Virus record (IMG/VR): IMGVR_UViG_3300034072_001149
Location: 95,201-159,200 of that record
DNA: 64,000 nt
Strand: one strand, 5' to 3'
Source: a virus
Part shown: in pieces, positions 951 to 61,726 of the stretch
Layout of the letters: every line of letters begins with the position of its first letter
How positions within the stretch are numbered: the first letter of the stretch is position 1
Notes under the pieces: model-generated
Told to the model about the DNA's origin: nothing
The model's input: only the letters and a program-made list of their open reading frames with translations
Database searches by the model: none
Position numbers and translations under genes: made by a program

Positions 951-1337
951 TCAGAAGTTGCCAAGAAACGATAGTTTGAACATAGTGGCATGTTTGGGAT
1001 CACCAAACTTGGCAGTGAGCTCTGTTTGTCTTTTTTTGGTGAAATAAAAGTTTAAACCTAGATCAACTTTGAATTCAAAACTGGCTTGATTTTCCGTTAT
1101 ACACTCTCGAGCCCATTCCATGATATTTCTATCACGGATGGCAAATGGTGCTCTTTGGAGAATACCACTTGTTCCTTCTGGATGCCACTCAGTAGTGACA
1201 TCAAAAGGAATAACAAATTTGACCCTATAAGGCGCCAGCAGATATTTTGGACTTGATCTAAAACGGTATTTGAACCGGAGGATGTTATCAAGGGGGTGGT
1301 CACCCCCTCCTCGCCTTGTGGAACTCATATTCCACAT
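951..1337 (-). CDS. FKL-motif family small protein
   Basis: C-terminus KFGDPKHATMFKLSF. Confidence 0.7.
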   Translation of the reverse strand: MWNMSSTRRGGGDHPLDNILRFKYRFRSSPKYLLAPYRVKFVIPFDVTTEWHPEGTSGILQRAPFAIRDRNIMEWARECITENQASFEFKVDLGLNFYFTKKRQTELTAKFGDPKHATMFKLSFLGNF

Positions 1338-2170
1338 TATACGTCTTCACCAAGCCATTCGCGAGTAGCGGCTTTGCTGACCCCAATTACTACCTTTTCC
1401 AAATCACAGGCATATAAGCCAGCGCAGCTAAAACCATTGAGTTCAACGATCTTTGGACCATCTTCGGTTAGCGCGACGTCACAGGTGTATGCGATATCTA
1501 CCTGCCATTCATGATCTGCGACCTGCTGCGCCAAATTCCAACATTCTTGTGGCCAGTCTCGTCGCACGTCCAACTTGCCGTCCCAGCGATACTCTGAACC
1601 GGCAATAACCTGCTTGTCAGCTATCACGAAACGAAACTCACCTTGGATTTCCACTCCTGGATTCACCAGTATCAAGGTGTCTTCCATAACACCACTGATC
1701 TGCTCCAGAGTCGAGATGTCGTCATCTACCAGATCACGCTTGATGCGCTGGCCCGCGAACGTCTTGAATCCGCTATCAGGGCGGACAAAGAGTAGATTGG
1801 TGTTATGCTCAATGAAAAGTTCATGGGCTCGGTGTTTGAACATGGCCCAAGTCATGAATGTTGCTTTGCGATTGAGAAACCAATCCAAAGGAAGGTAGCT
1901 CATATACTGACTAGCAGAGGTTCGCCGGTTCACGCCAAGATGACCAGGTTGGAACCTACCATCTGGGTTTACCTTTTTGGTAAAATCATGTGACCCGTAG
2001 AGCACCACTGGTCCATCAATGCTGTCGATATGAGAATAAGTCCCGTCATCTTCTCGTTCAATCTCAATTACATCGTGACCAAGAGAGCGAATGACATCGG
2101 GCAAAGGACGCTGACCATAGATCATGCGTTCAAGAATGTAATCGTCGAGAATCCAAGTAACTTGAGCCAT
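1337..2170 (-). CDS. ATP-grasp protein (DUF4343/R2K-like)
   Basis: FVRPDSGFKTFAG, EFRFVI, CDVA..GPKIVELNGFSCAGLY. Confidence 0.8.
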   Translation of the reverse strand: MAQVTWILDDYILERMIYGQRPLPDVIRSLGHDVIEIEREDDGTYSHIDSIDGPVVLYGSHDFTKKVNPDGRFQPGHLGVNRRTSASQYMSYLPLDWFLNRKATFMTWAMFKHRAHELFIEHNTNLLFVRPDSGFKTFAGQRIKRDLVDDDISTLEQISGVMEDTLILVNPGVEIQGEFRFVIADKQVIAGSEYRWDGKLDVRRDWPQECWNLAQQVADHEWQVDIAYTCDVALTEDGPKIVELNGFSCAGLYACDLEKVVIGVSKAATREWLGEDV

Positions 2171-2205
2171 CCTAAGTTGCTAAAACAGGATGGCTCAAAA
2201 GTCAA
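2162..2205 (-). promoter_or_regulatory. Leaderless promoter with a 12-bp inverted repeat covering the ATG
   Basis: TTGACT-17-TAGCAA-6 nt-ATG; TTGAGCCATCCT (2162-2173)/AGGATGGCTCAA (2187-2198). Confidence 0.55.
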
Positions 2206-2210
2206 TCAGC

Positions 2211-2558
2211 TTATGCCGCCTGTTGGATATCATCCTTGTAGTTCTGCTCAAAAGGCAGTTCAGTTAGGATCTCAACTTCATCACAAAGGCGTTCGACCTT
2301 GAGATTGGCTTCAGCCATTAAGGTTAGCATCATATTGCGAACCTGTTCTGACATCTGTATGACCTTGACATCAGCATCCAGATTTGGATCCCGACGTATC
2401 TGGTGCATACGATCTTTGGCCGCCTTACGAGCCTGCTGTAGAAGCATTTTGCTCACAGTTTGACTCACAGCCGCCAGCGAGATCTCGCCAGTTTCTTCCA
2501 CAGCTTCAGGCGCAATCTGAGTTAGGTCTAGATTAAACTCTACTTTGAACTTTGACAC
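2211..2558 (-). CDS. Hypothetical protein
   Basis: GTG start with GGGAG RBS; ends QQAA. Confidence 0.7.
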   Translation of the reverse strand: MSKFKVEFNLDLTQIAPEAVEETGEISLAAVSQTVSKMLLQQARKAAKDRMHQIRRDPNLDADVKVIQMSEQVRNMMLTLMAEANLKVERLCDEVEILTELPFEQNYKDDIQQAA

Positions 2559-2769
2559 AGTCGATCTCCCAAACGGGTCTCTTATGCGGAAAAGGAAGAA
2601 TGCTCAGACCAAAAGGGACAAGTCCCAAGGGGCAAGTGGCCCTATTCCGATCTGTGTGCCTAAGCATGTCCTGTCCGCTAGCAGATTTTTCGCAAGAAGC
2701 CAAGAGCAAAAAATTATTCTTTGTCACGGCTTTGAAATACACCTACTAGCAGATTTCTAGAAACCAATT

Positions 2770-3087
2770 TTATTGATATAATCCAAAGCTTATGAAAAGC
2801 GGTAGGTCCGTTTCGTTATAAAGGCTATATGGACCAAGTTTGAAATATAACGCTTCTCTTACATCTTTGAAGATAATACGTATATAGGTATGAGGGATAT
2901 GATCAGGTGTAGGTGAGATTTCCTCAATCTGACTCAAGTCCCAAGGGCTTTTACAATTCTTATATAGCCAGATCTCCACAAAACTATAAAGAAGATCAAT
3001 GTTAATCTTCTTCAAATGGGTTACCTCTAAGGTAACTGTGAAACCATCAACCATAGACTGTGAATGAGACTCTCTTATCAAGTTCAT
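2770..3087 (-). CDS. FKL-motif family small protein
   Basis: WLYKNCKSPW ... IFKDVREALYFKLG; TAAATA 4 nt upstream. Confidence 0.7.
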   Translation of the reverse strand: MNLIRESHSQSMVDGFTVTLEVTHLKKINIDLLYSFVEIWLYKNCKSPWDLSQIEEISPTPDHIPHTYIRIIFKDVREALYFKLGPYSLYNETDLPLFISFGLYQ

Positions 3088-3136
3088 CCCGTATTTATGA
3101 GTTGCGCCAATCTAATAGCGCAACTCACTCAGGCAC

Positions 3137-5084: not shown

Positions 5085-5148
5085 TATAAAAACTCCTTGC
5101 GTTAGAACACCGTGTTAAAACCATAATCCATTGATAGCAATATTCAAA

Positions 5149-5460
5149 TTACTTTGATTCCCACGCCTGATGGCCACCTCGAAGCTTGAACATCAACGCA
5201 TCATTTTTGTCTTCAAACCGGACAACCATGGTATATTCGTCCGGTCTCCCTCTGACAGTTTTGTAGATAAAATAGGCCCATTTACCTGGAGTATTCTCCA
5301 CCAGCCAATCCTCTACAAGCTTGGCTGATTCAAAATTGTCAGGGACTTGGAATTGGGTACGTATCCATGATCTGTTCATAGGCCCCGTAAGAGATTTACG
5401 AAACAGCTTGTCGGTCTGGACTTCAAAATCAGTAAAAGTGAGATTTGTTGGCTTTTCCAT
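5149..5460 (-). CDS. FKL-motif family small protein
   Basis: WLVENTPGKW ... RFEDKNDALMFKL. Confidence 0.75.
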   Translation of the reverse strand: MEKPTNLTFTDFEVQTDKLFRKSLTGPMNRSWIRTQFQVPDNFESAKLVEDWLVENTPGKWAYFIYKTVRGRPDEYTMVVRFEDKNDALMFKLRGGHQAWESK

Positions 5461-20377: not shown

Positions 20378-21112
20378 TTAGGAGTGGCCCTTCATGCTCA
20401 GCATGAGCTTGTAGAACTCGTCCTTGAGGTGCGGTTCATCACGGAACTTGCCGCGCATGATCGCAGTCGTCATGTCAGACTCATGTTCCTTAACACCACG
20501 ATGTGTCATACAGTGATGTTCTGCTTTTAGAACAACCGCAACATTCTCGGTCTCAGCATAACGAACCAGTTCGTCAGCAATCTGAGTTGTCATTTCTTCC
20601 TGGATTTGTGGACGTTCCGCAATCCAGTGAACAATGCGATTGAACTTCGAGAGTCCAATGACCTTGTCCTCAGGGAAGATACCAACCCAGCAGCGACCCA
20701 CAATGTTCTGGAAGTGATGAGCACAGGTCGAACGAATCGAGATCGGACCAGCAGTGTAGAGGTCCTGGTAGCCTACGTTGGGGAACGAAGTAATCTTTGG
20801 TGCCGCGACATAGCGACCACCATAGGTTTCGTTGACATACATCTTGGCAACTCGACGAGCGGTGCCATTAGTGTTGTGATCGTGGTCAGTGTCGATGACT
20901 AGGCTACGGAGAACTGCTTCCATCTTTTCGGTGACTTCGTCAACCAGTAGAGCGCGCTCTTCATCAGTGATGAACTTTGCGATATTGTCATTACAATGAA
21001 ACTGCTGACCGGCTTCAATGAGGCGCGCACGGATCTTCTCAGAAACGGGAACCTCTTGCCCATGGGCGCAATCGTTGGAACCACAGCCCGTGGTAAGTTT
21101 GGTATCGGACAT
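20378..21112 (-). CDS. folE: GTP cyclohydrolase I
   Basis: TARRVAKMY, STCAHH, GLSKFNR, QIQEEMT, HHCMTHRGV. Confidence 0.95.
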   Translation of the reverse strand: MSDTKLTTGCGSNDCAHGQEVPVSEKIRARLIEAGQQFHCNDNIAKFITDEERALLVDEVTEKMEAVLRSLVIDTDHDHNTNGTARRVAKMYVNETYGGRYVAAPKITSFPNVGYQDLYTAGPISIRSTCAHHFQNIVGRCWVGIFPEDKVIGLSKFNRIVHWIAERPQIQEEMTTQIADELVRYAETENVAVVLKAEHHCMTHRGVKEHESDMTTAIMRGKFRDEPHLKDEFYKLMLSMKGHS

Positions 21113-21183: not shown

Positions 21184-21609
21184 TTAATAACTACTCAATT
21201 TGAACATCACCGCTCTGGCTTTGAGAAACCGCGCGAAGTCTTCATGATCCTCAAAGCAAATGGACAAATGCCCTCTAGCCCAATCAATTTCTCTGGCTTT
21301 ATGACTTTGAAGAGCAGAAACAGGCGGACCTCCGGTGGCAGGCAAAGCATAGGTTGAGATAGCGTATAGACCCACGTTATTCTCATCACAAAACTTACGA
21401 ATATCCTTTGTGAAGTCTTCCCACATTCTGACTGTTAGAAGTTCTCTATTGTCAGTAACATGGGCTTCAAAAGAAGCGGAGGCATGAATTATCGCACGAT
21501 TTCTCATCATGTTGGCATACAGATCCGTCCCAGGAAGCACGCCAGACATAGGAATTTCTTTGGGAAGCTTGACATCAGTTATAGTCAATTCAATCAAAGT
21601 AGTTTTCAT
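21184..21609 (-). CDS. FKL-motif family protein
   Basis: FCDENNVGLY...FEDHEDF...AVMFKLS. Confidence 0.7.
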   Translation of the reverse strand: MKTTLIELTITDVKLPKEIPMSGVLPGTDLYANMMRNRAIIHASASFEAHVTDNRELLTVRMWEDFTKDIRKFCDENNVGLYAISTYALPATGGPPVSALQSHKAREIDWARGHLSICFEDHEDFARFLKARAVMFKLSSY

Positions 21610-22016
21610 AGTGAAAGCCTCAGCATGGTGCCTTGTTCCTTGAGCCAGAGTTCAAGGTCTTCTCGGCGCTCAAACAACAGATCCATGTCATACAAATACC
21701 TGTCAGTTGGTCCTTTCATATGACCTTTGATCTTCCAAGACCAATAACCCTCTAATCGAGTATCACAGAAATTTTTGATACTTTCACGTATCTCTGCCCA
21801 CTCAGAAGTTTTCCTGGTTGAATTGCCACAGGAAAACCTAAGTTCAACTCTGTTGAGGTGGAAGGCAACACCTAGGTCTTTGAATTCCTTGCGAAGCTTG
21901 ACCGAGGTTTCTACCCGATTTAGCTTTCCAAAAGTCTCATCCAACGTGATATCAAAGACGATATCACGATCAATGAATTTACTATGTCGGATCGAATGAC
22001 AAATTACTGTAGTCAT
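21606..22016 (-). CDS. FKL-motif family protein
   Basis: FCDTRLEGYW...FERREDL...TMLRLS. Confidence 0.7.
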   Translation of the reverse strand: MTTVICHSIRHSKFIDRDIVFDITLDETFGKLNRVETSVKLRKEFKDLGVAFHLNRVELRFSCGNSTRKTSEWAEIRESIKNFCDTRLEGYWSWKIKGHMKGPTDRYLYDMDLLFERREDLELWLKEQGTMLRLSL

Positions 22017-22420
22017 GGAACACTCAATTTGACAAGGACGGCACAATCGCGAATGAATAGAATGAGATCATCCTCATGCTCAAACATGAATTTTATCTTC
22101 AGTTCGTTACCAGGTAGATCGGCCTCTACCTCATCTTCATTGTCCCAGACTGTCCAAAATCCAGCGCAATTGTTATCACACCACTCTTCCATCTTACAGA
22201 AGATCTCGGTGTATTCGGCGGTGGCTTCCTCGATTGGCTTGCCGCCCTCTTTGACCTTGTTGACTGTGATAGTAATGAGGAACATATTCCGCTGAAACTT
22301 TAGGTAGAGGTCAGACCACTCTGATCTGACCTCCCCAGCGGAATTATTGCCTAAAAACATATCATTGTATCGGATCTGGCGGCAACGCCGCATCTGATTG
22401 ATTTTGATTTCAGCCAGCAT
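22013..22420 (-). CDS. FKL-motif family protein
   Basis: WCDNNCAGFW...FEHEDDL...AVLVKLS. Confidence 0.7.
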   Translation of the reverse strand: MLAEIKINQMRRCRQIRYNDMFLGNNSAGEVRSEWSDLYLKFQRNMFLITITVNKVKEGGKPIEEATAEYTEIFCKMEEWCDNNCAGFWTVWDNEDEVEADLPGNELKIKFMFEHEDDLILFIRDCAVLVKLSVP

Positions 22421-23552
22421 AGCGATACTGCTCGCCTTGACCCAGAAGAATATCAATAGTGCGGTCAATAGTCTGATGCTGATCATCAGCAGCATACCAA
22501 ACTTCACTATCATCTAGGCTGGTAAGCAGATAATCCATCTTCTTGATAGCATCTTCAACTGACCAAGGCACGTATAGGTGCTTGGCCGAATTGTTGAGAG
22601 CCTGTGGGAAACTGCGGAAAGCAGGACATAGGCTCAGAGTGCCTAGTGCTGATGCTTCGTTCAAAGTGTTGCTCTGCCAATCCTGACGAGCACAATTGAA
22701 TTGAAGCTGCGAGTCGGCGAGGATGTCATAATACTCGGACTTCTTCAGCCCTTCCTTGATAACCAGTTTGCCATCAGCTTCAAGTTGACGAGCACGGTCG
22801 ATATACTGCTGATGAGTTGATCGCAGCGCCTTGGCACCGGTTAGGATCCAAAACTCGTATCCACGTTCCACAAAATCGCTATTCTCGATGAGATCCATGA
22901 AGAAATCAGGCTGTTTTTCGTGGTCAAAGCGGGAAGTATAGACAATACGCTTTTTACGCTCATTAAGGGGTCTGAGAGCTTCTAGGCCACCAACGCGACT
23001 ACGAACTTCCTCACGGTCAAATGGCAAGCCAGTGACGTAAAGAGGGGCTTCTAGAAGTGCGATTCTCATATGAGGGCCCATTTCAGTGTTGGCCATCAAG
23101 ATACCATCACAGGTCTTACTTACTAGCTGCTCGAAATCACGCATCCAATTACGCCATGGGAATACAAAGTCATCAGGGTCAATTGACTGTGCGAGATTGC
23201 GAGTAAAGACCTTGGGCTTCATATGAGCAGGAAGCTGCTCCATGATATACGGAAGACTCTCATAACCTGGCTGGAATAGATCTTCGCTGAAGATCACATC
23301 ATTGCCAGTAATTTCACCGGACTCCATGAGGCGAACCAGTTCAGCCATCTGAGTCATTGACCAATAGCAACGACCATGGGCATCTAGAACCTGGCCGGTC
23401 TTGATGTCCTTGTCCTCACGAAGAGTTCTTCCATGAACCGTGAGGAATGGAACGCCGCGCTCCTTGAACCTACTTTCGTTCCAGTCCTTTAGCTGAAGAG
23501 TGTAGCGCTCTTCATACATTTCTAGGGGTAGATAAATGATTCTTTTGGTCAT
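22410..23552 (-). CDS. GT-B fold glycosyltransferase
   Basis: VYTSRFDHEKQP, KSEYYDIL, QDWQSNTLNEA..G; start MTKRIIY. Confidence 0.8.
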   Translation of the reverse strand: MTKRIIYLPLEMYEERYTLQLKDWNESRFKERGVPFLTVHGRTLREDKDIKTGQVLDAHGRCYWSMTQMAELVRLMESGEITGNDVIFSEDLFQPGYESLPYIMEQLPAHMKPKVFTRNLAQSIDPDDFVFPWRNWMRDFEQLVSKTCDGILMANTEMGPHMRIALLEAPLYVTGLPFDREEVRSRVGGLEALRPLNERKKRIVYTSRFDHEKQPDFFMDLIENSDFVERGYEFWILTGAKALRSTHQQYIDRARQLEADGKLVIKEGLKKSEYYDILADSQLQFNCARQDWQSNTLNEASALGTLSLCPAFRSFPQALNNSAKHLYVPWSVEDAIKKMDYLLTSLDDSEVWYAADDQHQTIDRTIDILLGQGEQYRYAG

Positions 23553-23564: not shown

Positions 23565-24110
23565 ATGTCCAAGAGATTTCCCAACACCGGCGTCAGGTCG
23601 TCTACGGACGAATTTGTAGCAAAAGCTATAACAGTTCACGGCACTAAATTCAATTATTCTGGTGTCTTATATGTGAATGCTAAAACTAAGGTAGAAATAG
23701 GCTGTTCTGTTCACGGACCATTCCTCCAACGTCCGAATGATCACCTGAGCGGAGTAGGTTGTGGTCGATGTGGCCAACAGGTGGCTAACGCTACTCGTCG
23801 ACAAAAAGGAATAATCAGTCTAGATCCCAAAGCAATCGATGTTTATCGCCGTCGTGTTAGGCATCTCAGTCTAAAGACCTACGAGAAACACTATCAGCTA
23901 ATCAATCCCCTGGGATTGCCTAGGGGGAATGATTTTCATCTTGATCACAAATTATCCATCGTAGATGGATTCAATGCTGGTATATCTGAGGGGATAATGA
24001 GTAGCTGGCAAAATCTTACAATCTTACCTGCTAATCAAAATCGTTCCAAATCAAGCAAATCTAGTATCTCTGTTGATGAGTTGGTGAAACTTATAACCAC
24101 GTCAACTTGA
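23565..24110 (+). mobile_element. HNH homing endonuclease with zinc-ribbon N-terminus, antisense
   Basis: HG.KFNY..V.Y....KV.I.C..HG.F.Q.P..HL.G.GC..C; FHLDHK...NL......NRSK. Confidence 0.8.
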
Positions 24111-24348
24111 ATAGCGTGGCCTTTCTGATATCTTCAATATAGATGTAGCAAGCTAGTATCTTTACCTTGGTTTCAGGGGATTCATTCGTGCTGAAGAAAT
24201 CAGATATTTCTTCATATACAACCTGGAAATCGTATTCAATTTCCAGGTCGTTGAACCACTGAATTACATCATCTGTCAATCTTGGTTCAAAAAACTGATG
24301 GTCTTGGATCCAAGAACATGGCTTACTAAAATCCGCTTTGAAGATCAT
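24091..24348 (-). CDS. FKL-motif family protein
   Basis: IEDIRKATLFKLTW. Confidence 0.75.
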   Translation of the reverse strand: MIFKADFSKPCSWIQDHQFFEPRLTDDVIQWFNDLEIEYDFQVVYEEISDFFSTNESPETKVKILACYIYIEDIRKATLFKLTWL

Positions 24349-24716
24349 GCCTTGACAGGGTATTCCGCAAAGCTTCCATTTTCGCCATCTTCACTGACTT
24401 CAATTGTGATATGACGTCCTGGATATTTCGCGGCAATCTGCGCATACAGATCGTCACTTATCATTTCACAGCTCTTGTAATCAAGCTGTAGGGTTCCCTC
24501 GTTATAGAGTCCTTCAAGCCATCTCTTGAACTGGATAAACTCCAGATCACGATCATCATGAAAAACCTCAATCCACACTTTGAAGTGAAAGATATGGCGA
24601 TGTGGATAGCCCAAGAAACTAACATCAGCTAGGTTGGGATCCGTGAGGGCTGCGGGATATTTGTGGATTCCCTCTTTTTGAAAAGAGATCCAGATCATTT
24701 TGAAATTTTCGGTCAT
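24345..24716 (-). CDS. queD: QueD-like (6-carboxy-tetrahydropterin synthase, T-fold)
   Basis: EGIH, PHRHIFH, DRDLEFIQFK, SCEMI, VSEDGENG; near folE/queE. Confidence 0.72.
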   Translation of the reverse strand: MTENFKMIWISFQKEGIHKYPAALTDPNLADVSFLGYPHRHIFHFKVWIEVFHDDRDLEFIQFKRWLEGLYNEGTLQLDYKSCEMISDDLYAQIAAKYPGRHITIEVSEDGENGSFAEYPVKA

Positions 24717-24752: not shown

Positions 24753-25007
24753 TTACATCCATGTCAACTTGAACATCATAGCCAGGCGCGGATCATCAAT
24801 AACCAGATCGACTTTCCACTGACTGCGAATCCGCAGGCTGTATTCCATGCCATGTTGTCGCACCCAATCGTCAATATCATCATTCAGGAGAACGGCAATA
24901 TCTCGATGATCTTCGGGGTAAGAACGCCCATAGTGGATACGACAAAGGGGTTTAAGACCCACCTCTCTACCCATCTGAGTACCAATTATAAATCTTACTT
25001 TTTCCAA
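24753..25007 (-). CDS. FKL-motif family protein
   Basis: IDDPRLAMMFKLTW. Confidence 0.75.
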   Translation of the reverse strand: MEKVRFIIGTQMGREVGLKPLCRIHYGRSYPEDHRDIAVLLNDDIDDWVRQHGMEYSLRIRSQWKVDLVIDDPRLAMMFKLTWM

Positions 25008-35625: not shown

Positions 35626-35635
35626 CACCTAAAAG

Positions 35636-36216: not shown

Positions 36217-38192
36217 CTATCCTTGGCGTCCATAATCGAAATCACATTGTCTTCACCGAGCAACTGGCGTGCCTTGACCAGCTTGCTGGAATTGCCCGAA
36301 GGGTCCTTGGCCACAAGGTAGGTCGTGTCCTTGTTGACCGAGGAGCCGATCCGACCCGAGCGGGCCTCAATCTTGGCTTCTAGATCCTTGTCACGAATAC
36401 CCGTGAAAACCACAGTAACACCCTCGAGGTCACCACCCGTGACCTTTTCCTTGGGAGCAACCAACGTGTAATAGCCGTCGATTTCCTTGAGGAAGTCCAG
36501 AAACTTGGGCAGGTTGTCCACGATAGTCTGTGCCGTCTTGGACTCAAAGCCCTCGAGCTTGGCAATATCCTGCACCGTGACCGTGCCGTTGAGAATAGGG
36601 TCGCTGCCCAGTGCCTCAACTACCTTGGTCATCTTGCGTCGACCAATACCTCGTCCCAACAGCGAAGTAGCACCGGCAAGGATACCAAGCTCTACGTTGT
36701 TGAGCTTGAGACGTAGACCTTCCCAGATCTTCTTGCCCGCGCTATCACCGGTGGCTTTCTGAAGTTCTGCCTGGGTGGCTCGGATGATTGAAATCGGACT
36801 CTTGAAGCCAGCATCGTAAAGCTTTTCAATGCTTCCCTCCCGGAGGTGGGGCACGTCAAGACCAGTAGTGCCAAACATTGCGTTGATGACCTCGAGCTGA
36901 ACCGCACGATTGTTATTCGTATCGGTCATGATGAGATCGACCTGACCATCGCTCCATTCCAGCGGACCAAAATCCGCTTCACTCGGTTCAGCCCACTTTG
37001 CCGCAGGTTCCACTACCTTCTGGATGAAGGGAATGACGTCACCCGACCGAGTGATTTGGATCTTAGCGCCAGGACCGATGATATTGTCGCGGATAAACTT
37101 GGCGTTGAACCCGGTGGCGTAGGTAATGGTCACACCGACCAGGTCAACGGGGTCGATTTCCACTCGCGGCTTCAAATAGCCGGCCTTGCTGGGGTTCCAG
37201 TGGACTTCCTTGACCGTTGCGATTGCGACATTGTCCTCACTGCCAACCTTGAACTTCTTGCTGCTGATCGGATTGATGCTGCTGGACTTACGAGTCAGCT
37301 TTTCCACAATCGCGATATTGTCCAGATCAATCACAATACCGTCAATAGCAGTTGGGCTCTTGGAACGACGCTCGTTGAGGTAAGCAATCAGAAACTCGTC
37401 AGTGAGTTCACGACCCTTTTTGGTAATATAAGGCGTGACTTCATAGCCGGCTTCGGCAAGAACTCGGAACTGTTCCGACTTGCTCATCAGCGGCTTGACC
37501 ACGCTGGTAGCGATCACCTTGACATTGTCATAAAACGTATCAGGGGATTCGCTAGCGTTCATGCGACCTGCCACATAATTGCGCGGATTTTTGTAAGTGC
37601 GGCCGCCTTCAGCTTCAGCATTTGCCTTCATGTTGTTGAAAACATCGTCGGCCATAATGACTTCAAGACGAACATCATGATTTTCGATATTCATCACATC
37701 AAGGCTGCGAGGAAGTGACTTGATGCGCTTCATATGACGTGTGATATCCGCTCCCTGGAAACCATTGCCGCGCGAATAAGAAATTCGGAGTTCGCCAGCT
37801 TTTCCGTGGCAGTTGAGAGCAGACGTGCCGTCCTGTTTGTCCGAGATCACGAAAGTCTCGTCCAACCAGCCGTTGGCTTCTATCCACTTGATGGTTTCGC
37901 CTTCATATACCTGATCCAGCGAGCCCATAGGATGTGGAAGGTCGATCTTGCCGCCGCGCACATCGCTACCGACAGAGACCAAAAACTTGTTGTTGGGGTC
38001 GATGCTACGGAGCATCTTTTCGAGTTCATCATACTGAGCGTCGGTAAGAAAGCTCTCTTCTTCTACACCATTGTGGAAGAGGTCCGATGCTTCGGTCAGG
38101 ATGTGGACGAGCATTTCGGGGGTCGGTTCGACCTCACCATTGATAATCTGCTGTGATGCTTCGACCGCATCGAAGAACGGCATCGTGGTCAT
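36207..38192 (-). CDS. ligA: NAD-dependent DNA ligase
   Basis: D.QYD.L, MGSLD, KQDG, SRGNG..G.DIT, NPRN, IDGIV, RSGDVIP, HhH, C-terminal BRCT (VFTG.RD...G.SV.K.T.YLV). Confidence 0.93.
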   Translation of the reverse strand: MTTMPFFDAVEASQQIINGEVEPTPEMLVHILTEASDLFHNGVEEESFLTDAQYDELEKMLRSIDPNNKFLVSVGSDVRGGKIDLPHPMGSLDQVYEGETIKWIEANGWLDETFVISDKQDGTSALNCHGKAGELRISYSRGNGFQGADITRHMKRIKSLPRSLDVMNIENHDVRLEVIMADDVFNNMKANAEAEGGRTYKNPRNYVAGRMNASESPDTFYDNVKVIATSVVKPLMSKSEQFRVLAEAGYEVTPYITKKGRELTDEFLIAYLNERRSKSPTAIDGIVIDLDNIAIVEKLTRKSSSINPISSKKFKVGSEDNVAIATVKEVHWNPSKAGYLKPRVEIDPVDLVGVTITYATGFNAKFIRDNIIGPGAKIQITRSGDVIPFIQKVVEPAAKWAEPSEADFGPLEWSDGQVDLIMTDTNNNRAVQLEVINAMFGTTGLDVPHLREGSIEKLYDAGFKSPISIIRATQAELQKATGDSAGKKIWEGLRLKLNNVELGILAGATSLLGRGIGRRKMTKVVEALGSDPILNGTVTVQDIAKLEGFESKTAQTIVDNLPKFLDFLKEIDGYYTLVAPKEKVTGGDLEGVTVVFTGIRDKDLEAKIEARSGRIGSSVNKDTTYLVAKDPSGNSSKLVKARQLLGEDNVISIMDAKDRWG

Positions 38193-51217: not shown

Positions 51218-53581
51218 TTAAGCAAACAGGTCGGGCTGATTTACTGTTTCTTCAGCGTGACTGATAACAAGCTTGTCATCATTCACTGTCACATTTGCCA
51301 GTCCTCCGTTTTTCAGAGCACCAAACAACATAACACGGCTCAGTGGCTTGCTGAGCTCATCCTGAATCAGCCGGCTCAGAGGACGAGCGCCCATCTTGGG
51401 ATCATATCCCTTCCGGGCCAGGTAGTTGCGGGCAGCTTCATCAACATTGATGGTAACTCCCTTTTCCTGGGCTTGCTTGTTCAACTGTGAGAGGAACTTT
51501 TCAACAATCATGAGCATATTCTCGCTCTTAAGAGCTTTGAATTTCACGATAGCGTCAAGCCGGTTGCGGAACTCGGGGGCAAACATCTTCTCAATGACCT
51601 TATCGTCATTACCAGCGGTGCTGTTGTCTCCAAAGCCCAGTGTATTCTTCTGGAGCTCACTGGCGCCGGCATTGCTGGTCATGATCAGGATCACATTGCG
51701 GAAGTTCACAGTCTTGCCTGCACTATTGGTCAACTGGCCGTTGTCCATGACCTGCAGGAAGATGTTGAAAATATCCGGGTGAGCCTTCTCGAGTTCGTCA
51801 ATAAGAAGCACACAATGCGGGCTGTTCTCAACCGCATTTGTCAGAAGACCTGACCCCGAGGCGCCATCACCAAAGCCCACATAGCCCGGAGGCGAACCAA
51901 TGAACTTGCTAACAGAGTGCTTTTCCATGTATTCCGACATATCGAAACGATGAAGCGGAATACCCAGCGTGGTAGCGAGTTGCTTGGCAAGCTCAGTTTT
52001 ACCCACACCAGTCGGACCAGCAAAGAGATAGTTACCCTGGGGCTTGTTGGGATCTCTCAACCCGGCACGGCTCAGGAATACCGCATCGACCACATTGTCA
52101 ATTGCGTCATCCTGTCCGAATACTGAATTGTGGAGATCCGCCTCAAGATGCGAAAGCTTCTGGGTCTCGTCTTCCTTGACCGTCCGTGCCGGGATACGAG
52201 CAATACGACTGACCTCGTCTTCAACCAGTTCAAGGGTGATTTCACTCTTGCGCTGATCCTTTGGAGCAATCTTCTGGCGAGCGCCAGCCGCGTCAATGAC
52301 GTCAATTGCCTTATCAGGCAACATACGATCAGTCACATAACGAGCAGTCAAGTCAACTGCCGCTTCCAGAGCTTCCTGTGTATATGAAATACCGTGATAT
52401 TCCGCATACACCTTGCTGATACCCTGCAGAATGCGCTTGGCATCTTCGATGCTCGGCTCATTCACGTCCAGCTTCTGGAATCGACGGAGGAGAGCGCGGT
52501 CCTTTTCAAAATGCTTACGATATTCTTCAAAGGTGGTGCCACCAATACAACGAAGCTTACCCTTGGCCAGTGCTGGCTTCAAGAGGTTCGCTACGTCAAG
52601 CCCGCCGCTACTTCCAGCACCTGCTCCCATGATAGTGTGGATTTCGTCAATGAAAAGCATTGGCATGATGCCCTTTTCTTCACCGACTTTTTCCACCGCA
52701 TCAATGATCTGCTTGACTCGTTCCTCCATATCACCACGGAACTTGGTTCCGGCCATGAGGGTGCCAATTTCAAGCGAGTAAACAATGCTACCCTTGATCG
52801 CATCAGGAACATTACCTTCGGCAATCATCTTGGCAAGCCCTTCGACGACTGCGGTCTTACCAACGCCAGGTTCGCCAACTACCACAGCATTGTTCTTGGT
52901 GCGACGGGCAGTAGTGAGGATAAGGGCATCTACCTCGGTTTCACGGCCAATGAGAGGATCAATCTTTCCGGCCAATGCCTGCTCGTTGAGATTGACGCAG
53001 AACTTCTCCAAGAGACGTTCACTTTTGCTCTTCTTGTTGCCAGTAACGGGTTCACCATCCTCGTCAACCTCAATAGTAGGAGACTCGTTGGAATCCTTGG
53101 CCTTGAGCTCACCCACAAGATCAGACTCATCGTCGCCTAGCAAATCATCATGCGCAACAGTCGTCTTGACATCAAAGGCATCAATATTCTGTTTGGCCAG
53201 AAAGTAAACCGCGTGGCTATCCTGATCCTGCTCAGCCAGCAATGAAATCAGAATGTCAACGGCCCGAATGGTATGACGACCACTGAACAATGCCTGCGTG
53301 ACTGTTCTTTGAACCACACGACTCAGAGGAAGTGTCTGGCGTGGAGGATTACCATTGGCCTTGCCGAGAGCACCACTGGCAAAATGTGCCACCAGATCAG
53401 CGGAAAGATCGGAAACATTTGCGCCGATTTCATGCAGGACTTCAATGACTCGCTGGTCTTGTAGGACGCTAGCGAGCAAATGTTCCAATGTGACATATTC
53501 ATGATCATGACGTTCGGCAATTTCCGCCGCACGATCGAAGATTTCTTGAGCCTTTGTTGGGTCAAATTGATCCAAGGACAT
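51218..53581 (-). CDS. clpA: ATP-dependent Clp protease ATP-binding subunit
   Basis: Clp N-domain (HEYVTLEHLL), two AAA modules (GEPGVGKT; GPTGVGKT), no middle domain, LGF ClpP-docking loop. Confidence 0.95.
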   Translation of the reverse strand: MSLDQFDPTKAQEIFDRAAEIAERHDHEYVTLEHLLASVLQDQRVIEVLHEIGANVSDLSADLVAHFASGALGKANGNPPRQTLPLSRVVQRTVTQALFSGRHTIRAVDILISLLAEQDQDSHAVYFLAKQNIDAFDVKTTVAHDDLLGDDESDLVGELKAKDSNESPTIEVDEDGEPVTGNKKSKSERLLEKFCVNLNEQALAGKIDPLIGRETEVDALILTTARRTKNNAVVVGEPGVGKTAVVEGLAKMIAEGNVPDAIKGSIVYSLEIGTLMAGTKFRGDMEERVKQIIDAVEKVGEEKGIMPMLFIDEIHTIMGAGAGSSGGLDVANLLKPALAKGKLRCIGGTTFEEYRKHFEKDRALLRRFQKLDVNEPSIEDAKRILQGISKVYAEYHGISYTQEALEAAVDLTARYVTDRMLPDKAIDVIDAAGARQKIAPKDQRKSEITLELVEDEVSRIARIPARTVKEDETQKLSHLEADLHNSVFGQDDAIDNVVDAVFLSRAGLRDPNKPQGNYLFAGPTGVGKTELAKQLATTLGIPLHRFDMSEYMEKHSVSKFIGSPPGYVGFGDGASGSGLLTNAVENSPHCVLLIDELEKAHPDIFNIFLQVMDNGQLTNSAGKTVNFRNVILIMTSNAGASELQKNTLGFGDNSTAGNDDKVIEKMFAPEFRNRLDAIVKFKALKSENMLMIVEKFLSQLNKQAQEKGVTINVDEAARNYLARKGYDPKMGARPLSRLIQDELSKPLSRVMLFGALKNGGLANVTVNDDKLVISHAEETVNQPDLFA

Positions 53582-55939: not shown

Positions 55940-56659
55940 TTGAGCCATTGGTGTTTTACCACCTACATGGAATACAAATACGTAGCCCCACCAGAGGAAG
56001 CCGCCGATGACTGGATGGCTCACCACATATCAATTTTTGTGAAGGTGGATAACCGAGACTCCTTTTGGGAGTTCTTGGAGAGATACTGCGGACCTAAGGG
56101 CCAAAATTGGAAAATCTCTGATAATCAGGAAAGATGGATCTGGGGAGATGAAGAAATTGATCTCCGCTTTCGTTTCAAAAAGCACGCCATGGTCGTCAAG
56201 CTTCAATGGGATGAAGACGTTCGTCCAAACAATAGGCCCTGGGAATATCTAAAGAAGTTGATTCTAACGTCACACCCTTTGCGGCCTGTAGGTAATCCTT
56301 TGATTGGTCAAAGCTCGTCAAATGGTCTTGGCCGCAATATACAGACCATCACCTGGGACCCTATCTTTCGTCCAAGCAACTGGAATAGCCCAATAGGTGG
56401 AATTTATAGCCCAACAACGAACCTCGAGCCGTTGTCAGAAAAAGCTTATAAGAAAAAGGGAAGCCCCATAGTTCTAGACCTAGAATCCCGAATTGAAACC
56501 TACTGGACTGAAGGAAGTTCAGAAGAGACAGAACATCGACGTTCTATGAAAATTCAATACCTCAAAGGCAGAACAAATGGACCTAGATCACAGTCGGCCA
56601 AGATATCAGGGGCGCAAGCAACATTATCTATATGGGATGAAATTCCTCCTGAATCCTAA
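55940..56659 (+). CDS. FKL-motif protein with long C-terminal extension
   Basis: FLERYCG...W...FRFKKHAMVVKLQW; tail ends GAQATLSIWDE. Confidence 0.7.
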   Translation: MSHWCFTTYMEYKYVAPPEEAADDWMAHHISIFVKVDNRDSFWEFLERYCGPKGQNWKISDNQERWIWGDEEIDLRFRFKKHAMVVKLQWDEDVRPNNRPWEYLKKLILTSHPLRPVGNPLIGQSSSNGLGRNIQTITWDPIFRPSNWNSPIGGIYSPTTNLEPLSEKAYKKKGSPIVLDLESRIETYWTEGSSEETEHRRSMKIQYLKGRTNGPRSQSAKISGAQATLSIWDEIPPES

Positions 56660-57047
56660 CAGACAATCGGACCTAGAGGAAACCCTGAAATCTTTTGAAA
56701 TCACAAAATATAGGCTATCTGCCAATAATATGTATGGCGGTATGATGGCTGAAGAAGCTTTCATAAGTTTCCGTATAAAGAAACAAGCCCTATTGTTCAA
56801 ATTGGCATGGGTTCCGTGTGAAGATGTATCACTAGAAACCAAGGGTATGATTATCAGGCAAATCGTTCCCAACCGCATTGCCCAGGAGATCTTAAGCGTC
56901 CAGCCTTTGGGAGATCTCGTAAAGCCCTTGGTCCAGGCGCGCGATGATCTCCGCCCCGCCTCGTCGACTACTTCTCCAAATTCGTACGAAGTCCGTCCTG
57001 GAGAACGAAGTGAAACAGGCTCGGACCGCACCTCTGGTGGATTTTAA
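56637..57047 (+). CDS. FKL-motif protein fused to a capsid Gol-like peptide
   Basis: FRIKKQALLFKLAW followed by MIIRQIVPNRIAQEILSVQPL. Confidence 0.7.
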   Translation: MKFLLNPNRQSDLEETLKSFEITKYRLSANNMYGGMMAEEAFISFRIKKQALLFKLAWVPCEDVSLETKGMIIRQIVPNRIAQEILSVQPLGDLVKPLVQARDDLRPASSTTSPNSYEVRPGERSETGSDRTSGGF

Positions 57048-58515: not shown

Positions 58516-59406
58516 ATGGGCGGAAATGCGTTTCCGGGCCTGCCGATGGTGCGGGTCCGAAGGGAGGATGTAGCCTCCACAGTAGATCATGTTGTCACGG
58601 TTATGAACATGCCAGGCTTCACTCGTGAGTATGCGATGGATAACCTCATGGGTAGTGCGGGCAAGCAAGATGATAGCGGAGACCTTGACTTTGCGCTCAA
58701 CGATCGAGCAGCTAGGTTTTATGGTGAGCCTGATCTTCCGGTTTTCAGCCTCAAAGCTTTCGCAGCCAGGGCTAGAGAAGTCCTACCACCGGGTCATGTT
58801 CAGACAAAAACTCTCAAGGGTGGACAGTTCCAGACCGCCTTCCCCGTTGCTGGTGATCCCAGCAAGGGTTACGTTCAGGTTGACTTCGTTGCTGGTAACC
58901 CTGAATGGTTGAAGTTTAGCCATTTCTCTCCAGGTAAGGATTTCAGTCCTTATAAGGGTGTTATGGTTTCTACCATGCTAGGCGTTTTGGCTAAAATGCG
59001 AAAGGACTTTGAACTCTATGAAGGGGAGGAACGGGTTGCTCGAGTTGGCCTCAGGTTTGACTTGGAGAAGGGGCTTTATCGTCAGTGGAAGCTTCGCAAA
59101 CTAGAGAACCAAGGCATGAGTGTTGTTACGGCTGACGAATTTGAGACTGCTGTTGCAACTTGCCCACGCTTTGCGCGTTTGAGTCATGTCACAGCACCTT
59201 GTGAGGTGCTGAGGCTGCTGTTCGGGGAGCCCGTCAGCTTGGAGGAGGTAAACACCTTTGAGAAACTGGTTTCCTCGGTTCGCCGGTATCTTCCTGAACG
59301 TTTTGAGGAAGCCCGAGAACGATTCCTCGAAGCGTTCATGCGAAGCGCCGGAAAGAATGACTACACGCTGGAAGAAGTTGCCTCCGACAGCGTTTGGTCA
59401 CAGTGA
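58516..59406 (+). CDS. Pol-beta-superfamily nucleotidyltransferase (phage type)
   Basis: MGGNAF, GSAGK..DSGDLD, VQVDF, KG. Confidence 0.75.
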   Translation: MGGNAFPGLPMVRVRREDVASTVDHVVTVMNMPGFTREYAMDNLMGSAGKQDDSGDLDFALNDRAARFYGEPDLPVFSLKAFAARAREVLPPGHVQTKTLKGGQFQTAFPVAGDPSKGYVQVDFVAGNPEWLKFSHFSPGKDFSPYKGVMVSTMLGVLAKMRKDFELYEGEERVARVGLRFDLEKGLYRQWKLRKLENQGMSVVTADEFETAVATCPRFARLSHVTAPCEVLRLLFGEPVSLEEVNTFEKLVSSVRRYLPERFEEARERFLEAFMRSAGKNDYTLEEVASDSVWSQ

Positions 59407-59419
59407 AGTAACCGCGCCG

Positions 59420-59680
59420 TTGAGATACCGACAACCCCTTCTCTCGGTCTCCGGCGCGGTTATTATCGCAATAGCAGGTGATGTTGAACCAAGAAGTTGG
59501 TGTGATGATTGTTGCGTAGGTGACTGGTATTGTGAAACATCAGACCTGGGCCCAGTCCAGCTTGGTTCCTTGAATCTCCCACTCCATTGCTTTCATTTTT
59601 CCAATGCCGCCGATTTGAAAATGTTCAGTTTTGTTTTCTCCACCAATATGAAGCTTGCTCTTGAAGTCGTTATGGACTAA
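59420..59680 (+). CDS. FKL-motif family protein (start uncertain)
   Basis: WCDDCCVGDW...FHFSNAADLKMFSF. Confidence 0.55.
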   Translation: MRYRQPLLSVSGAVIIAIAGDVEPRSWCDDCCVGDWYCETSDLGPVQLGSLNLPLHCFHFSNAADLKMFSFVFSTNMKLALEVVMD

Positions 59681-59689
59681 AAGAGTGGA

Positions 59690-60082
59690 ATGGAAGAAGA
59701 CGAACTCCTTCGCTACCTAACCAATACCGCCAAATCTATTCAGCGCAGTCTGAGGTTTTCTGTCAGTGCCTCTATGATTTTTCCGGTATTCTCTGTTATC
59801 TTCTACTTCTTCGGTCCCGGTTATATCAGTTTAACCACCGTATTGGCTTCTATCACTTCATTGATTGTGGTTTACTGTATTCATTATAGCTCACATGGAC
59901 ACATACAAAACTGGTGGTGGCTCAAGCCAGGATTCTTTGTAACTATTCCAACAACGTCAGACGTTGATCAGGCCAGGAAATGGTGTAAGGATCAGTCTTA
60001 TGAATTTGTCGAAGTAACCACCGGTGTATTCAAATTCTTCAAATCTAGGGATGCCGTCCACTTCAAGCTTTCTTGCTTCTGA
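59690..60082 (+). CDS. Two-TM + FKL-motif protein
   Basis: HGHIQNWW, WCKDQ, FFKSRDAVHFKLS. Confidence 0.72.
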   Translation: MEEDELLRYLTNTAKSIQRSLRFSVSASMIFPVFSVIFYFFGPGYISLTTVLASITSLIVVYCIHYSSHGHIQNWWWLKPGFFVTIPTTSDVDQARKWCKDQSYEFVEVTTGVFKFFKSRDAVHFKLSCF

Positions 60083-60086
60083 ATAA

Positions 60087-60560
60087 TTGAAATTTAATCC
60101 GCAAGGTGTTAATCTAAATTACCTCACGAATAGATCGAATAACTTTGTGAGGAAAAGAGTGGATATTCAATCCAAACTGACTACTGGTTCCTTCGGTTTC
60201 TTGATGCGATACTTGGAGGGAATCATGGACGACTATGATTACACGCCTTATTTTCGGTCAAAGCGAAAGGATTGGGAGAGCAACTATGATCCCAAGTTCC
60301 AAAGCCCTAGTCGCGCCAAAGAGCTTCATACAGCAGCTTCTAGTCTTTCGTCCTTGCCTAGTAACCGCTGGGTTAGACCACGTCTTCCTGAGGGCTCTGA
60401 GACGCTAGGAAAAGAGTTCCTAGCAGATTTGAAGAGATGGTTTAGCGAGCATAAGATCAAGCATCGATCCTGTTTGATTACAGAAAATAGTGAAACCTTT
60501 TGGGTCTACATTTTCAAGAAGCCAAGCGACGCCGTATTGTTCAAATTAGCCTGGGGCTGA
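60087..60560 (+). CDS. FKL-motif family protein
   Basis: IFKKPSDAVLFKLAW. Confidence 0.75.
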   Translation: MKFNPQGVNLNYLTNRSNNFVRKRVDIQSKLTTGSFGFLMRYLEGIMDDYDYTPYFRSKRKDWESNYDPKFQSPSRAKELHTAASSLSSLPSNRWVRPRLPEGSETLGKEFLADLKRWFSEHKIKHRSCLITENSETFWVYIFKKPSDAVLFKLAWG

Positions 60561-60561
60561 T

Positions 60562-60909
60562 ATGAAGCATAGAAAAAAGCCAAAGCGTCGAGCATTCCGT
60601 AGAAGGTTTGTTTTACAGTCTTTTAGAGGTTCTCCCAATCTCAGAAGATGCGACCTGATCACTAGTGGTTGGCGCATCATTTCTGAACTTGAATTCGCCA
60701 AACCAATAATGCGAGATGTTGAAAGAATATGGCTCAACCTCTTTGCTCCTGATGCGAAAATCACTTATCGTTTCGTTGAGAACTATAAGAATATGCCGCT
60801 CTATCGAAAAGGCAAGTGGAACGGCAAAGCATATTTTGTCACATTCGAGGAAAAAGATGTTCTAAAAGCTATGAACTTCAGGGTTTCCTGGTGGGACTTT
60901 AATGAGTAA
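60562..60909 (+). CDS. FKL-motif family protein (divergent)
   Basis: TFEEKDVLKAMNFRVSW. Confidence 0.65.
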   Translation: MKHRKKPKRRAFRRRFVLQSFRGSPNLRRCDLITSGWRIISELEFAKPIMRDVERIWLNLFAPDAKITYRFVENYKNMPLYRKGKWNGKAYFVTFEEKDVLKAMNFRVSWWDFNE

Positions 60910-61207
60910 GAAGTGCTATGTTGTCGAATGTGATTATCGACAGCTTTCAGCAGAAGCAATTCACTGGATTGAAAACTATAGCAGCGATCTAGCTTGGATT
61001 ACACGTCGCTGGAGAATATGGTCTGAACCAGCCAGAGAGGATGAACTTACTCTGGACGAATACTTCAATATGGTCTATTCCAAACACGAACCTAAAATAC
61101 CTCTTAGGAGAAGACAGATTGACGCCGTTCAATTTGTAAGTAAAAGAGATGCTTTGTATTTCACATTGGTGTTGCTAGATGACTCACAAGGAACCAGTTC
61201 GCTCTGA
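60902..61207 (+). CDS. FKL-motif family protein
   Basis: QFVSKRDALYFTL. Confidence 0.7.
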   Translation: MSKKCYVVECDYRQLSAEAIHWIENYSSDLAWITRRWRIWSEPAREDELTLDEYFNMVYSKHEPKIPLRRRQIDAVQFVSKRDALYFTLVLLDDSQGTSSL

Positions 61208-61424
61208 TCTTATCATTCCCAAGATGCGGAATGGCAAACCCATGGGTATTCTTGTGAGAAAGCGCAAGGGCACCACCCAGACTGTCCTCCCTGAAGTCAG
61301 GGAATGGTTGCGGACCTATACAAAAGGTCATTGGTATTTCTTTACCAATTCACAGACCAATCAACTATCCATTGCCTTCCATAACAAGCAAGATGCTTTG
61401 CTTTGGAAACTCGCATGGCATTGA
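61179..61424 (+). CDS. FKL-motif family protein
   Basis: EWLRTYTKGHW...FHNKQDALLWKLAW. Confidence 0.75.
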   Translation: MTHKEPVRSDLIIPKMRNGKPMGILVRKRKGTTQTVLPEVREWLRTYTKGHWYFFTNSQTNQLSIAFHNKQDALLWKLAWH

Positions 61425-61726
61425 AGCCTTTGTTCTATATGCTGTCAAAGCACGGACCATGGGATCATCATGTCCGGGTTAACAGTATTCTGACTATGTT
61501 GGAGGTTGAGAACTGGCTCAACAGCACAGGAAAAGTGCTCAATGTGGATTATGAATGCTTAATTGAAAACATCGAGAACAAAGCCACCAAGAAGACTTTT
61601 GTTCCGAATCTTCATTCAAATCGCAACAAAACAATGGGTCGAGCAGTCCAGACGGTTGAGCCAATTATATTTTTCAATGACTCAACCATCGCGACCTATG
61701 TAAAACTTACATGGGGTGGCCGATAA
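61403..61726 (+). CDS. FKL-motif family protein
   Basis: FFNDSTIATYVKLTW. Confidence 0.7.
   Translation: METRMALKPLFYMLSKHGPWDHHVRVNSILTMLEVENWLNSTGKVLNVDYECLIENIENKATKKTFVPNLHSNRNKTMGRAVQTVEPIIFFNDSTIATYVKLTWGGR

Follow-up and report, generated by a model that had tools for sequence, protein, structure and literature searches.

Why does a phage genome carry some twenty small genes that diverge along most of their length and share a motif near their ends? The question is raised by the window studied here, a stretch of 64,000 nucleotides that forms the last 64 kilobases (kb) of a 159,200-base-pair (bp) virus contig (positions 95,201 to 159,200 of IMG/VR record IMGVR_UViG_3300034072_001149; the contig is called G000 below). 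An earlier note on this DNA had listed 22 open reading frames (ORFs) as one expanded, highly diverged family of paralogues with a shared C-terminal motif, lying in tandem arrays on both strands, and had read the motif as a docking site for a single partner, possibly the phage ClpAP. All 22 ORFs are present at or near the positions given there, the arrays do lie on both strands, and profile searches back 19 of the 22 as one family. The shared part is a domain of about 50 residues, almost always at the very C-terminus, for which the name FKL-W domain is coined here; profiles A1 and A2 define it. Of the possible functions, a repertoire of adaptors or effectors that serve host takeover or anti-defence appears the most plausible, and the conserved motif is better read as a fold core than as a docking site.

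Membership in the family is supported by several profile searches. A first hidden Markov model (HMM) was seeded with 15 obvious members and iterated on the six-frame, stop-to-stop ORFs of the 159,200-bp contig. It converges, at an expectation value (E) below 1e-3, on 19 ORFs, of which 15 lie in the window and four upstream of it (contig positions 51523, 51828, 90565 and 91417). An independent profile, A2, composed of 109 sequences (105 of them metagenomic), recovers 18 of the window and contig members and adds the ORF at 24995 (E 2.6e-5); iteration jointly with a related genome brings in the ORF at 22013 (E 4e-8). A direct profile match is thereby found for 17 window ORFs, and the ORFs at 21184 and 21606 join through 22013, of which they are clear paralogues (jackhmmer E 1e-29 to 1e-37). 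This trio differs from the rest of the family by an 8-residue insert in the last helix and aligns to A2 with an hhalign probability of 96-97% (E 5e-10). The other three listed ORFs are only suggestive: those at 59258, 60562 and 60902 reach hhalign probabilities of 40%, 28% and 77% over 46, 21 and 19 columns, and their place in the 59.3-61.7 kb array and motif remnants make them possible members.

A chance origin of this signal is excluded because the shuffled and reversed controls are clean. No match at E < 1e-3 came from the 21,795 ORFs in 20 codon-block shuffles of the window, and neither these nor the reversed ORFs of three genomes gave anything below E 0.39. The five-residue end motif alone, written as a loose regular expression, was tried and is not enriched (18 matches versus 13 in shuffles), so the signal sits in the extended profile and in the C-terminal position. 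All tested orthologue pairs have a ratio of nonsynonymous to synonymous substitution (dN/dS) well below 1, and the ORFs are therefore real genes. The 22 ORFs are given below in window positions, with orthologues in G004, an IMG/VR genome of 435,856 bp that is collinear with the window contig, and in the cultured Sinorhizobium phage Phosso.

951 to 1337, minus strand: member of 128 residues, ending ..HATMFKLSFLGNF (HMM E 4e-13; A2 E 2e-7); among the few with a clear G004 orthologue, which is syntenic (67% identity, dN/dS 0.19).
2770 to 3087, minus strand: member of 105 residues, motif ending FKLGP, then a tail of about 20 residues (HMM E 1.7e-15; A2 E 1e-6); G004 orthologue with 96% identity.
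5149 to 5460, minus strand: member of 103 residues, ..NDALMFKLRG and a 9-residue tail (HMM E 4e-14; A2 E 2.6e-11); orthologues in G004 (79%) and Phosso (37%, 75 bits).
21184 to 21609, minus strand: divergent subfamily, 141 residues, insert in the last helix, ending ..AVMFKLSSY; missed by the plain HMM, and together with its G004 orthologue matching A2 at an hhalign probability of 96% (E 3e-9).
21606 to 22046, minus strand: divergent subfamily, ending ..GTMLRLSL, probable start ATG 22016 (jackhmmer and trio profile).
22013 to 22513, minus strand: divergent subfamily, helix WCDNNCAGFW, ending ..AVLVKLSVP, with a hydrophobic N-terminus in its longest reading (two-genome iterated profile E 4.4e-8).
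24091 to 24348, minus strand: member of 85 residues, ending ..KATLFKLTWL (HMM E 9e-15; A2 E 3e-12).
24753 to 25007, minus strand: member of 84 residues, ending ..LAMMFKLTWM (HMM E 2.6e-18; A2 E 4.8e-16); the metagenomic protein P0012 is near-identical.
24995 to 25324, minus strand: member with the variant motif ..AARTFILAW and a 27-residue tail (A2 E 2.6e-5; iterated profile E 1e-8); GTG 25324 or ATG 25267 is the probable start, not 25612, from which a 205-residue reading would overlap the next gene.
25315 to 25545, minus strand: member of 76 residues, ending ..QAVMFKLRWM (HMM E 1.3e-21; A2 E 3e-15); its ATG lies within the Thr-Trp codons (ACATGG) of the paralogue upstream (25536-25545).
25536 to 25811, minus strand: member of 91 residues, ending ..HAMLFKLTWS, modelled by AlphaFold2 (HMM E 5.7e-15; A2 E 1.6e-17).
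33894 to 34151, minus strand: member of 85 residues, ..DAALFKLRF and an 8-residue tail (HMM E 2.6e-16; A2 E 8e-12).
34142 to 34630, minus strand: predicted membrane-anchored member with two hydrophobic helices, GHMTNWW and the domain, ending ..DASFFKLAWG (HMM E 7.8e-20); probable start ATG 34591, giving 149 residues; the same architecture is found in the metagenomic proteins P0023, P0028, P0036 and P0061.
55940 to 56659, plus strand: member with the domain near the N-terminus (..HAMVVKLQWD) and a low-complexity tail of about 145 residues (HMM E 2.2e-8; A2 E 2e-3); probable start ATG 55967, giving 230 residues; identical to P0056.
56577 to 57047, plus strand: member, ..QALLFKLAWV and a 78-residue tail (HMM E 2.7e-11; A2 E 4e-6).
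59258 to 59680, plus strand: possible member, WCDDCCVGDW and then ..FHFSNAADLKMFSFVF; conserved G004 orthologue under purifying selection (dN/dS 0.22).
59690 to 60082, plus strand: predicted membrane-anchored member of 130 residues with two hydrophobic helices and GHIQNWWW, ending ..DAVHFKLSCF (HMM E 2e-10; A2 E 5.6e-5).
60087 to 60560, plus strand: member with a long N-terminal extension, ending ..DAVLFKLAWG (HMM E 1.2e-17; A2 E 2.7e-13).
60562 to 60909, plus strand: possible member, ending ..KDVLKAMNFRVSWWDFNE; G004 orthologue at dN/dS 0.10.
60902 to 61207, plus strand: possible member, ..FVSKRDALYFTLVLL and a tail; G004 orthologue at dN/dS 0.24.
61179 to 61424, plus strand: member of 81 residues, ending ..DALLWKLAWH (HMM E 2.7e-19; A2 E 3.6e-16).
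61403 to 61726, plus strand: member, ending ..IATYVKLTWGGR (HMM E 6e-14; A2 E 4e-3); probable start ATG 61415, inside the Ala-Trp codons (GCATGG, 61415-61424) of the preceding gene.

The domain follows a single pattern: a helix E-(V/I)-x-x-W-(L/C)-x-(E/D)-N, a variable loop that often holds G-x-W, a strand h-x-F-x-(D/N) and an end (D/H)-A-x-x-F-K-L-x-(W/F). Conservation was counted over 138 aligned domains from three genomes. The Trp of helix 1 is present in 96% with Leu or Cys adjacent, the Asn in 39%, an aromatic residue at the GxW position in 64%, and the Phe of the strand in 88%. In the last helix, the Ala is found in 90%, the Phe in 94%, the Lys in 89%, the Leu in 92%, and a terminal Trp or Phe in 98% (Trp in 70%). 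The positions conserved above 85% are W23, F50, A56, F59, K60 and L61, with W or F at position 63 in the same 98%; the loop columns are nearly empty of information. The chain usually ends 1-3 residues past the Trp, and 58 of 75 G004 domains end no more than 2 residues from the stop codon. Exceptions with tails are found in the window at 2770, 5149, 24995, 33894, 55940 and 56577. A large subset of the C-termini ends W-G-G-x (GGQ, GGK, GGE, GGR), not W-x, as in 61403-61726 and copies in G004. Reading the W-G-G-(Q/E/K/R) ends as a Pup-like C-terminus was dropped, because the final residue varies too much and the folds are not related.

The earlier note had proposed a search for a common fold, and one is predicted. 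AlphaFold2 models the protein of 25536-25811 (15-sequence alignment) with helices at residues 41-59 and 80-90 and strands at 63-67 and 73-77, the predicted local distance difference test score (pLDDT) being 74-92 over the block. Protein P0019, modelled from the 109-sequence alignment, has helices at 32-40 and 65-75 and strands at 45-48 and 59-62, with a core pLDDT above 90. Both models agree on helix-strand-strand-helix, a beta-hairpin between two helices, with a core pLDDT of about 85-95; their N-terminal parts are poorly predicted and dissimilar. A homodimer prediction (two copies of P0019, alignment A2) scored 0.01, the mark being 0.42, and speaks neither for nor against oligomerisation. 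The conserved positions are nearly all hydrophobic or small and lie within the modelled helix and strand elements, K60 is the sole conserved polar residue, and the A-x-x-F-x-x-x-W spacing places its residues on one helix face. For these reasons we infer that the conserved motif is the hydrophobic core of the fold and not a docking surface for one partner, as had been suggested.

The family reaches well beyond the window. The window derives from a T4-related megaphage of the lineage of the Sinorhizobium phages Phosso and AP-J-162. Its contig is an estimated 34% complete by CheckV and is a fragment of a genome of about 430-470 kb. The family B DNA polymerase (PolB) encoded in the window is 57% identical to that of Phosso and 51.5% identical to that of Agrobacterium phage Atu_ph07, and the G+C content of the window, about 46-47%, agrees with the 47.1% of AP-J-162 (PMC11242549). 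No GenBank phage matched a 12-kb part of the window in megablast. Carrier genomes were found with a degenerate DNA pattern for D-A-h-L-F-K-L-x-W, whose matches in IMG/VR fall mainly in contigs of 277-518 kb. Copies were then counted by profile searches of whole records, with completeness from CheckV, as follows.

G001, 416,714 bp, 90% complete: 94 matches.
G002, 465,259 bp, 100% complete: 80 matches.
G003, 462,455 bp, 100% complete: 87 matches.
G004, 435,856 bp, 100% complete: 81 matches.
G005, 518,643 bp, 100% complete: 27 matches.
G006, 424,529 bp, 100% complete: 31 matches.
G007, 277,444 bp, 60% complete: 53 matches.
G008, 290,322 bp, 68% complete: 38 matches.
Sinorhizobium phage Phosso (PV764938.1, cultured), 469,473 bp, complete record in GenBank: 48 matches.
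Agrobacterium phage Atu_ph07, 490,380 bp, complete GenBank record: 3 weak matches.

The lineage therefore carries 27-94 copies per genome. The count in related jumbo phages that had been suggested gives 80-94 in four records of 416-465 kb, which is above the scale of the window. To our knowledge, this is the largest paralogue expansion in a phage. A separate ORF search of G004 gives 74-76 family ORFs. About 34 copies lie at 183.5-195.8 kb of that genome, in two convergent arrays of about 17 each that meet at about 190.2 kb and leave room for little else, and a further 12 are found at 368-372 kb. If gene density is taken from Phosso, with its 735 annotated features in 469 kb, 75-94 copies amount to about one gene in eight. 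The Phosso copies inspected are all annotated as hypothetical proteins, and they surfaced only with a profile, tblastn of two members against GenBank phages having returned nothing usable.

Smaller genomes carry the domain in low numbers. Viral contigs of 30-42 kb have one to six true members within the stretches examined, and Rhizobium and Novosphingobium proviruses or prophages have one or two. Most of the 25 matches of the DNA pattern in bacterial genomes are due to chance, true members being found only in Novosphingobium, Rhizobium and one proteobacterial metagenome-assembled genome. An exhaustive profile search of metagenomes returned 499 clusters (50% identity) at E <= 1e-3. Nearly all are proteins of 55-150 residues with a C-terminal domain, and a few have two domains in tandem. 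A word-indexed homologue search gave few matches.

The copies are old and very diverged, and selection on them is purifying but relaxed. Between G000 and G004, 15-16 members are reciprocal best matches in conserved positions, with a median identity of 67%; the baseline over all conserved frames, shadow frames included, is about 72-74%. Their median dN/dS is 0.18 (range 0.06-0.43) versus 0.03 for 45 large genes, these values being rough because dS is mostly saturated. At longer range the picture changes: only 3 clear orthologue pairs link G004 to Phosso, although the PolB sequences of these two genomes share 57% identity, and in this comparison the closest relative of 50 of the 74 G004 members is another G004 paralogue. 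The closest paralogue pairs in G004 are about 34% identical over short stretches, with a top score of 51 bits, and none is recent. For 14 of the 74 members, versus 7 expected, the best-matching paralogue is no more than 3 kb away, a modest enrichment. The repertoire is therefore old: it is maintained over short evolutionary distances and is remodelled, or diverged past recognition, over longer ones.

No assigned function emerged from comparison with known families, in agreement with the earlier note. The window proteins and the 109 relatives have no consistent match to Pfam, PHROGs, PADLOC or PDB sequence profiles (here and below, among the matches listed). With PADLOC, the 109 members gave scattered chance-level matches (best E 0.006), with no family matched by more than two members. 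Among the matches listed, which for the 109 relatives cover the first 25 of 55 matched Pfam-type families, there is neither a ClpS or adaptor profile (members scanned at E <= 1) nor an RRM, KH or dsRBD profile (109 members scanned). Fold searches (Foldseek against PDB and BFVD, VIA-align, ESM Atlas) found no specific fold. Neighbours are only generic two-layer alpha/beta folds (ACT, RRM, KH, MESD, NRho, SPOR) at a template modelling (TM) score of about 0.55. VIA-align was run for both models against 48,161 representative chains; the best structural Z is at most 7.2 for the first model and at most 4.7 for the deeper one, and the tool gives 7-8 as the usual best Z for models with no clear match. 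In the ESM Atlas and BFVD, the nearest entries come from uncultured tailed phages and are unnamed, and all source names of relatives read "hypothetical protein". One ESM Atlas cluster near the family has a Gp23 Pfam match in 13% of its members. Kinship with RanBD/PH domains was considered and set aside: the weak local matches to the last strand and helix (E 0.07), with two PH-type Pfam models in 2 of 109 members, were judged to reflect a common strand-plus-Trp-helix pattern and not homology. A literature search on the motif and on megaphage paralogue families found no description.

The closest precedent is the expansion of about 35 zinc ribbons in Bacillus phage G, which was called "unprecedented" and for which transcription-factor or DNA-binding roles were proposed (Iyer et al. 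2021, PMC7824862). There, as here, a small domain was multiplied in a giant phage, its copies are highly diverged and its function is obscure. The FKL-W domain has a different fold with no metal ligands, its copy number is two to three times higher (80-94), and it also occurs as a single copy in small temperate phages. That a small domain can expand within one jumbo-phage lineage is thus already known; what differs is an undescribed domain and a scale two to three times larger. A second likeness is to the early host-takeover and anti-defence arrays of T4-like phages, which are also dense, polycistronic runs of genes of 70-130 codons with fast-evolving sequences amid replication and nucleotide-metabolism genes. 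Many small early genes of T4 encode dispensable accessory functions. These T4 genes are mostly unrelated to one another, whereas a single fold fills the FKL-W arrays.

What, then, do the paralogues do? We tentatively favour, at somewhat less than an even chance, a stable mini-scaffold that presents diversified surfaces, with the paralogues acting inside the cell on different host or phage targets. This reading draws on a single fold whose signature is hydrophobic, on loops, N-terminal parts and charge that vary freely among paralogues, and on very high copy number, purifying selection on each copy and a non-structural genomic context. The charge range is wide: among 97 members, the whole-protein isoelectric point (pI) runs from 4.3 to 10.3, with 39 acidic (pI < 6), 21 neutral and 37 basic proteins in a bimodal distribution. 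As for context, two copies in a Novosphingobium prophage lie directly downstream of a helicase gene, in a region marked by a phage lysozyme, and the Phosso arrays sit amid transfer RNA (tRNA), HisRS and Pth genes. The two hydrophobic helices and GHxxNWW that the earlier note had described are confirmed in 34142 and 59690, and with several metagenomic relatives the pattern before the domain broadens to (G/x)-x-x-N-W-W. Two helices leave both ends of the protein on the same side of the membrane, and we infer that this side is the cytoplasm.

Under such a mechanism, the FKL-W motif (the helix-1 W, the strand F and A-x2-F-K-L-x-W) would be the core that holds a small fold together, and specificity would reside in the hairpin loop, the N-terminal extension, the C-terminal tails and the net charge. 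Expressed from polycistronic arrays, the proteins would be produced within the infected cell, and some would be tethered to the inner membrane by their two helices. Each product might then bind a different host or phage macromolecule, in the service of host takeover, modulation of host processes or counter-defence.

Several points weigh against this reading. At the time scale that separates G000 from G004, purifying selection and stable synteny do not resemble a rapid arms race. The case for burial of the conserved residues draws on residue type and helix periodicity, and the near-invariant Lys (89%) and strict chain end would also fit a C-terminal element that is recognised by something else. 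No fusion domain that would point to a target turned up when longer, fused forms were sought, although this negative carries little weight. Scans for promoters, terminators and the T4 late promoter (TATAAATA) were uninformative on the timing of expression.

A bolder form of the same idea is possible but rather unlikely. Here the domain would be a binder scaffold evolved by phages, and a megaphage lineage would hold a standing library of up to about 90 paralogues, each directed against a different host protein, some tethered to the membrane and some carrying decoy peptides such as the capsid-like stretch described below. If this is true, candidate targets include defence systems as well as housekeeping machines.

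An improbable alternative is that the conserved C-terminal helix and chain end dock all paralogues on one machine, be it the phage Clp ATPase/ClpP, RNA polymerase or a host protease, while the variable parts choose substrates or cargo. The strict C-terminal position and the conserved Lys fit this explanation, and the window encodes a ClpA/B-type ATPase (51218-53581) that is kept in G004 (92% identity), Phosso (56%) and Atu_ph07 (51%). ClpS-type AAA+ adaptors are likewise small alpha/beta proteins able to dock on the Clp N-domain. The FKL-W proteins differ from them in having no adaptor profile among the matches listed and in a distribution that does not track the Clp ATPase: Atu_ph07 retains the enzyme and has only its 3 weak family matches, and proviruses G009 and G010 carry family members with no such ATPase, an absence that is not absolute given their 86% and 56% completeness. 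ClpAP as the one common partner is not supported. Moreover, K60 apart, every conserved position holds a hydrophobic or small residue inside a predicted helix or strand. The terminal residues differ between copies (L, M, G, S, H, GGK, GGQ and others) and hence form no uniform degron, and in members with tails of 20-150 residues past the motif the supposed C-terminal signal would be buried.

That the domain is a nucleic-acid-binding mini-domain of the RRM, KH or ACT type, with each paralogue bound to a different RNA or DNA site, is also quite doubtful. The phage has many RNA-related features (tRNAs, Ro60, ornate RNAs, RNA ligase), family genes adjoin RNA ligase, tRNA, Pth and synthetase genes in the window and in Phosso, and the strand carries a conserved aromatic residue (F 88%). 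The weak structural neighbours are mostly alpha/beta sandwiches of these types, in which helices likewise pack on one face of a small antiparallel sheet. Their scores, however, are at noise level: RRM/ferredoxin-like neighbours reach Z 3.6-4.7 with the deeper model and 5-7 with the first, within the stated background. The FKL-W domain is confidently modelled only as helix-strand-strand-helix, unlike the four-stranded beta-alpha-beta-beta-alpha-beta fold, and has neither RNP motifs nor a match to the RNA-binding profiles named above. With 39 of 97 members acidic, its non-uniform charge argues against one shared nucleic-acid-binding role.

Very unlikely is a role as virion cargo, in which the domain would target varied proteins into the capsid or another virion structure for injection with the DNA. 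In other jumbo phages, paralogous inner-body or internal proteins are injected in this way, a common module on varied small proteins is the expected look of a packaging tag, and one member (56577) has a stretch that resembles the major capsid protein. Set against this, two members are predicted inner-membrane proteins, the prophage copies lie in a replication/accessory region and not in the head module, and the arrays do not adjoin the gp23-type major capsid gene (contig 35107-36351, minus strand). Least of all do the copies look like largely neutral filler, remnants of tandem duplication with little individual function: copy number is very high and selection is relaxed relative to core genes, but every tested orthologue pair has a dN/dS well below 1, frames are intact, G000/G004 synteny is conserved and no recent near-identical copies exist, which makes this scarcely credible.

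Individual genes in the window add further observations. The peptide tails that had been noted on two members are confirmed at about 145 residues (55940) and 78 residues (56577). The tail of the latter holds IIRQIVPNRIAQEILSVQPL (window 56847-56909, plus strand), which is similar to the major capsid protein of the same phage at residues 86-105 (9 of 20 residues identical, 16 of 20 similar). This stretch has no match to a Pfam Gp23/capsid profile, and the G004 counterpart does not contain it. Where the window has two overlapping FKL-W genes (55940-57047), G004 has a single gene (153499-154182), whose product aligns with the first 145 residues of the 55940 ORF and the final 30 of the 56577 ORF. 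Because one G004 gene covers the start of the first and the end of the second, the pair suggests an insertion or duplication in the lineage of the window. A Trp codon as the regular source of the ATG of the next gene, as at 25315 and 61403, was considered and rejected; it is found in 11 of 81 family genes of three genomes and is occasional, not a rule.

The surrounding genes encode, besides PolB and the ClpA/B-type ATPase, an NAD-dependent ligase, an Rnl1-type RNA ligase and a collagen-repeat protein. Two genes that flank the arrays may belong together.

20378 to 21112, minus strand: GTP cyclohydrolase I gene, annotated thus in the related locus L001.
24345 to 24716, minus strand: small ORF that resembles QueD/PTPS, by eye only.
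61727 to 61945, minus strand: ORF of 72 residues directly after an FKL-W array that resembles translation initiation factor IF1 (S1/OB type), by eye.

Taken together, the GTP cyclohydrolase I gene and the QueD-like ORF suggest a 7-deazaguanine (preQ0-type) pathway.

One undescribed domain of about 50 residues thus accounts, at the upper end, for roughly one gene in eight in a lineage of phages of 400-500 kb, and for a sizeable share of what are counted as their unique hypothetical ORFs. The genome paper of AP-J-162 reports 304 unique ORFs and mentions no paralogue family (PMC11242549). The FKL-W domain merits a family definition in Pfam and PHROGs. Since it occurs in a cultured and tractable pair, Phosso on Sinorhizobium meliloti, and singly in small alphaproteobacterial prophages, its function can be tested by ordinary means. 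If the paralogues are indeed a library of binders, they would form the largest single-fold effector repertoire known in any phage, and the 48 copies of Phosso would open it to genetics. The expansion also raises the question of how very large phage genomes grow, and what purpose their extra genes serve.

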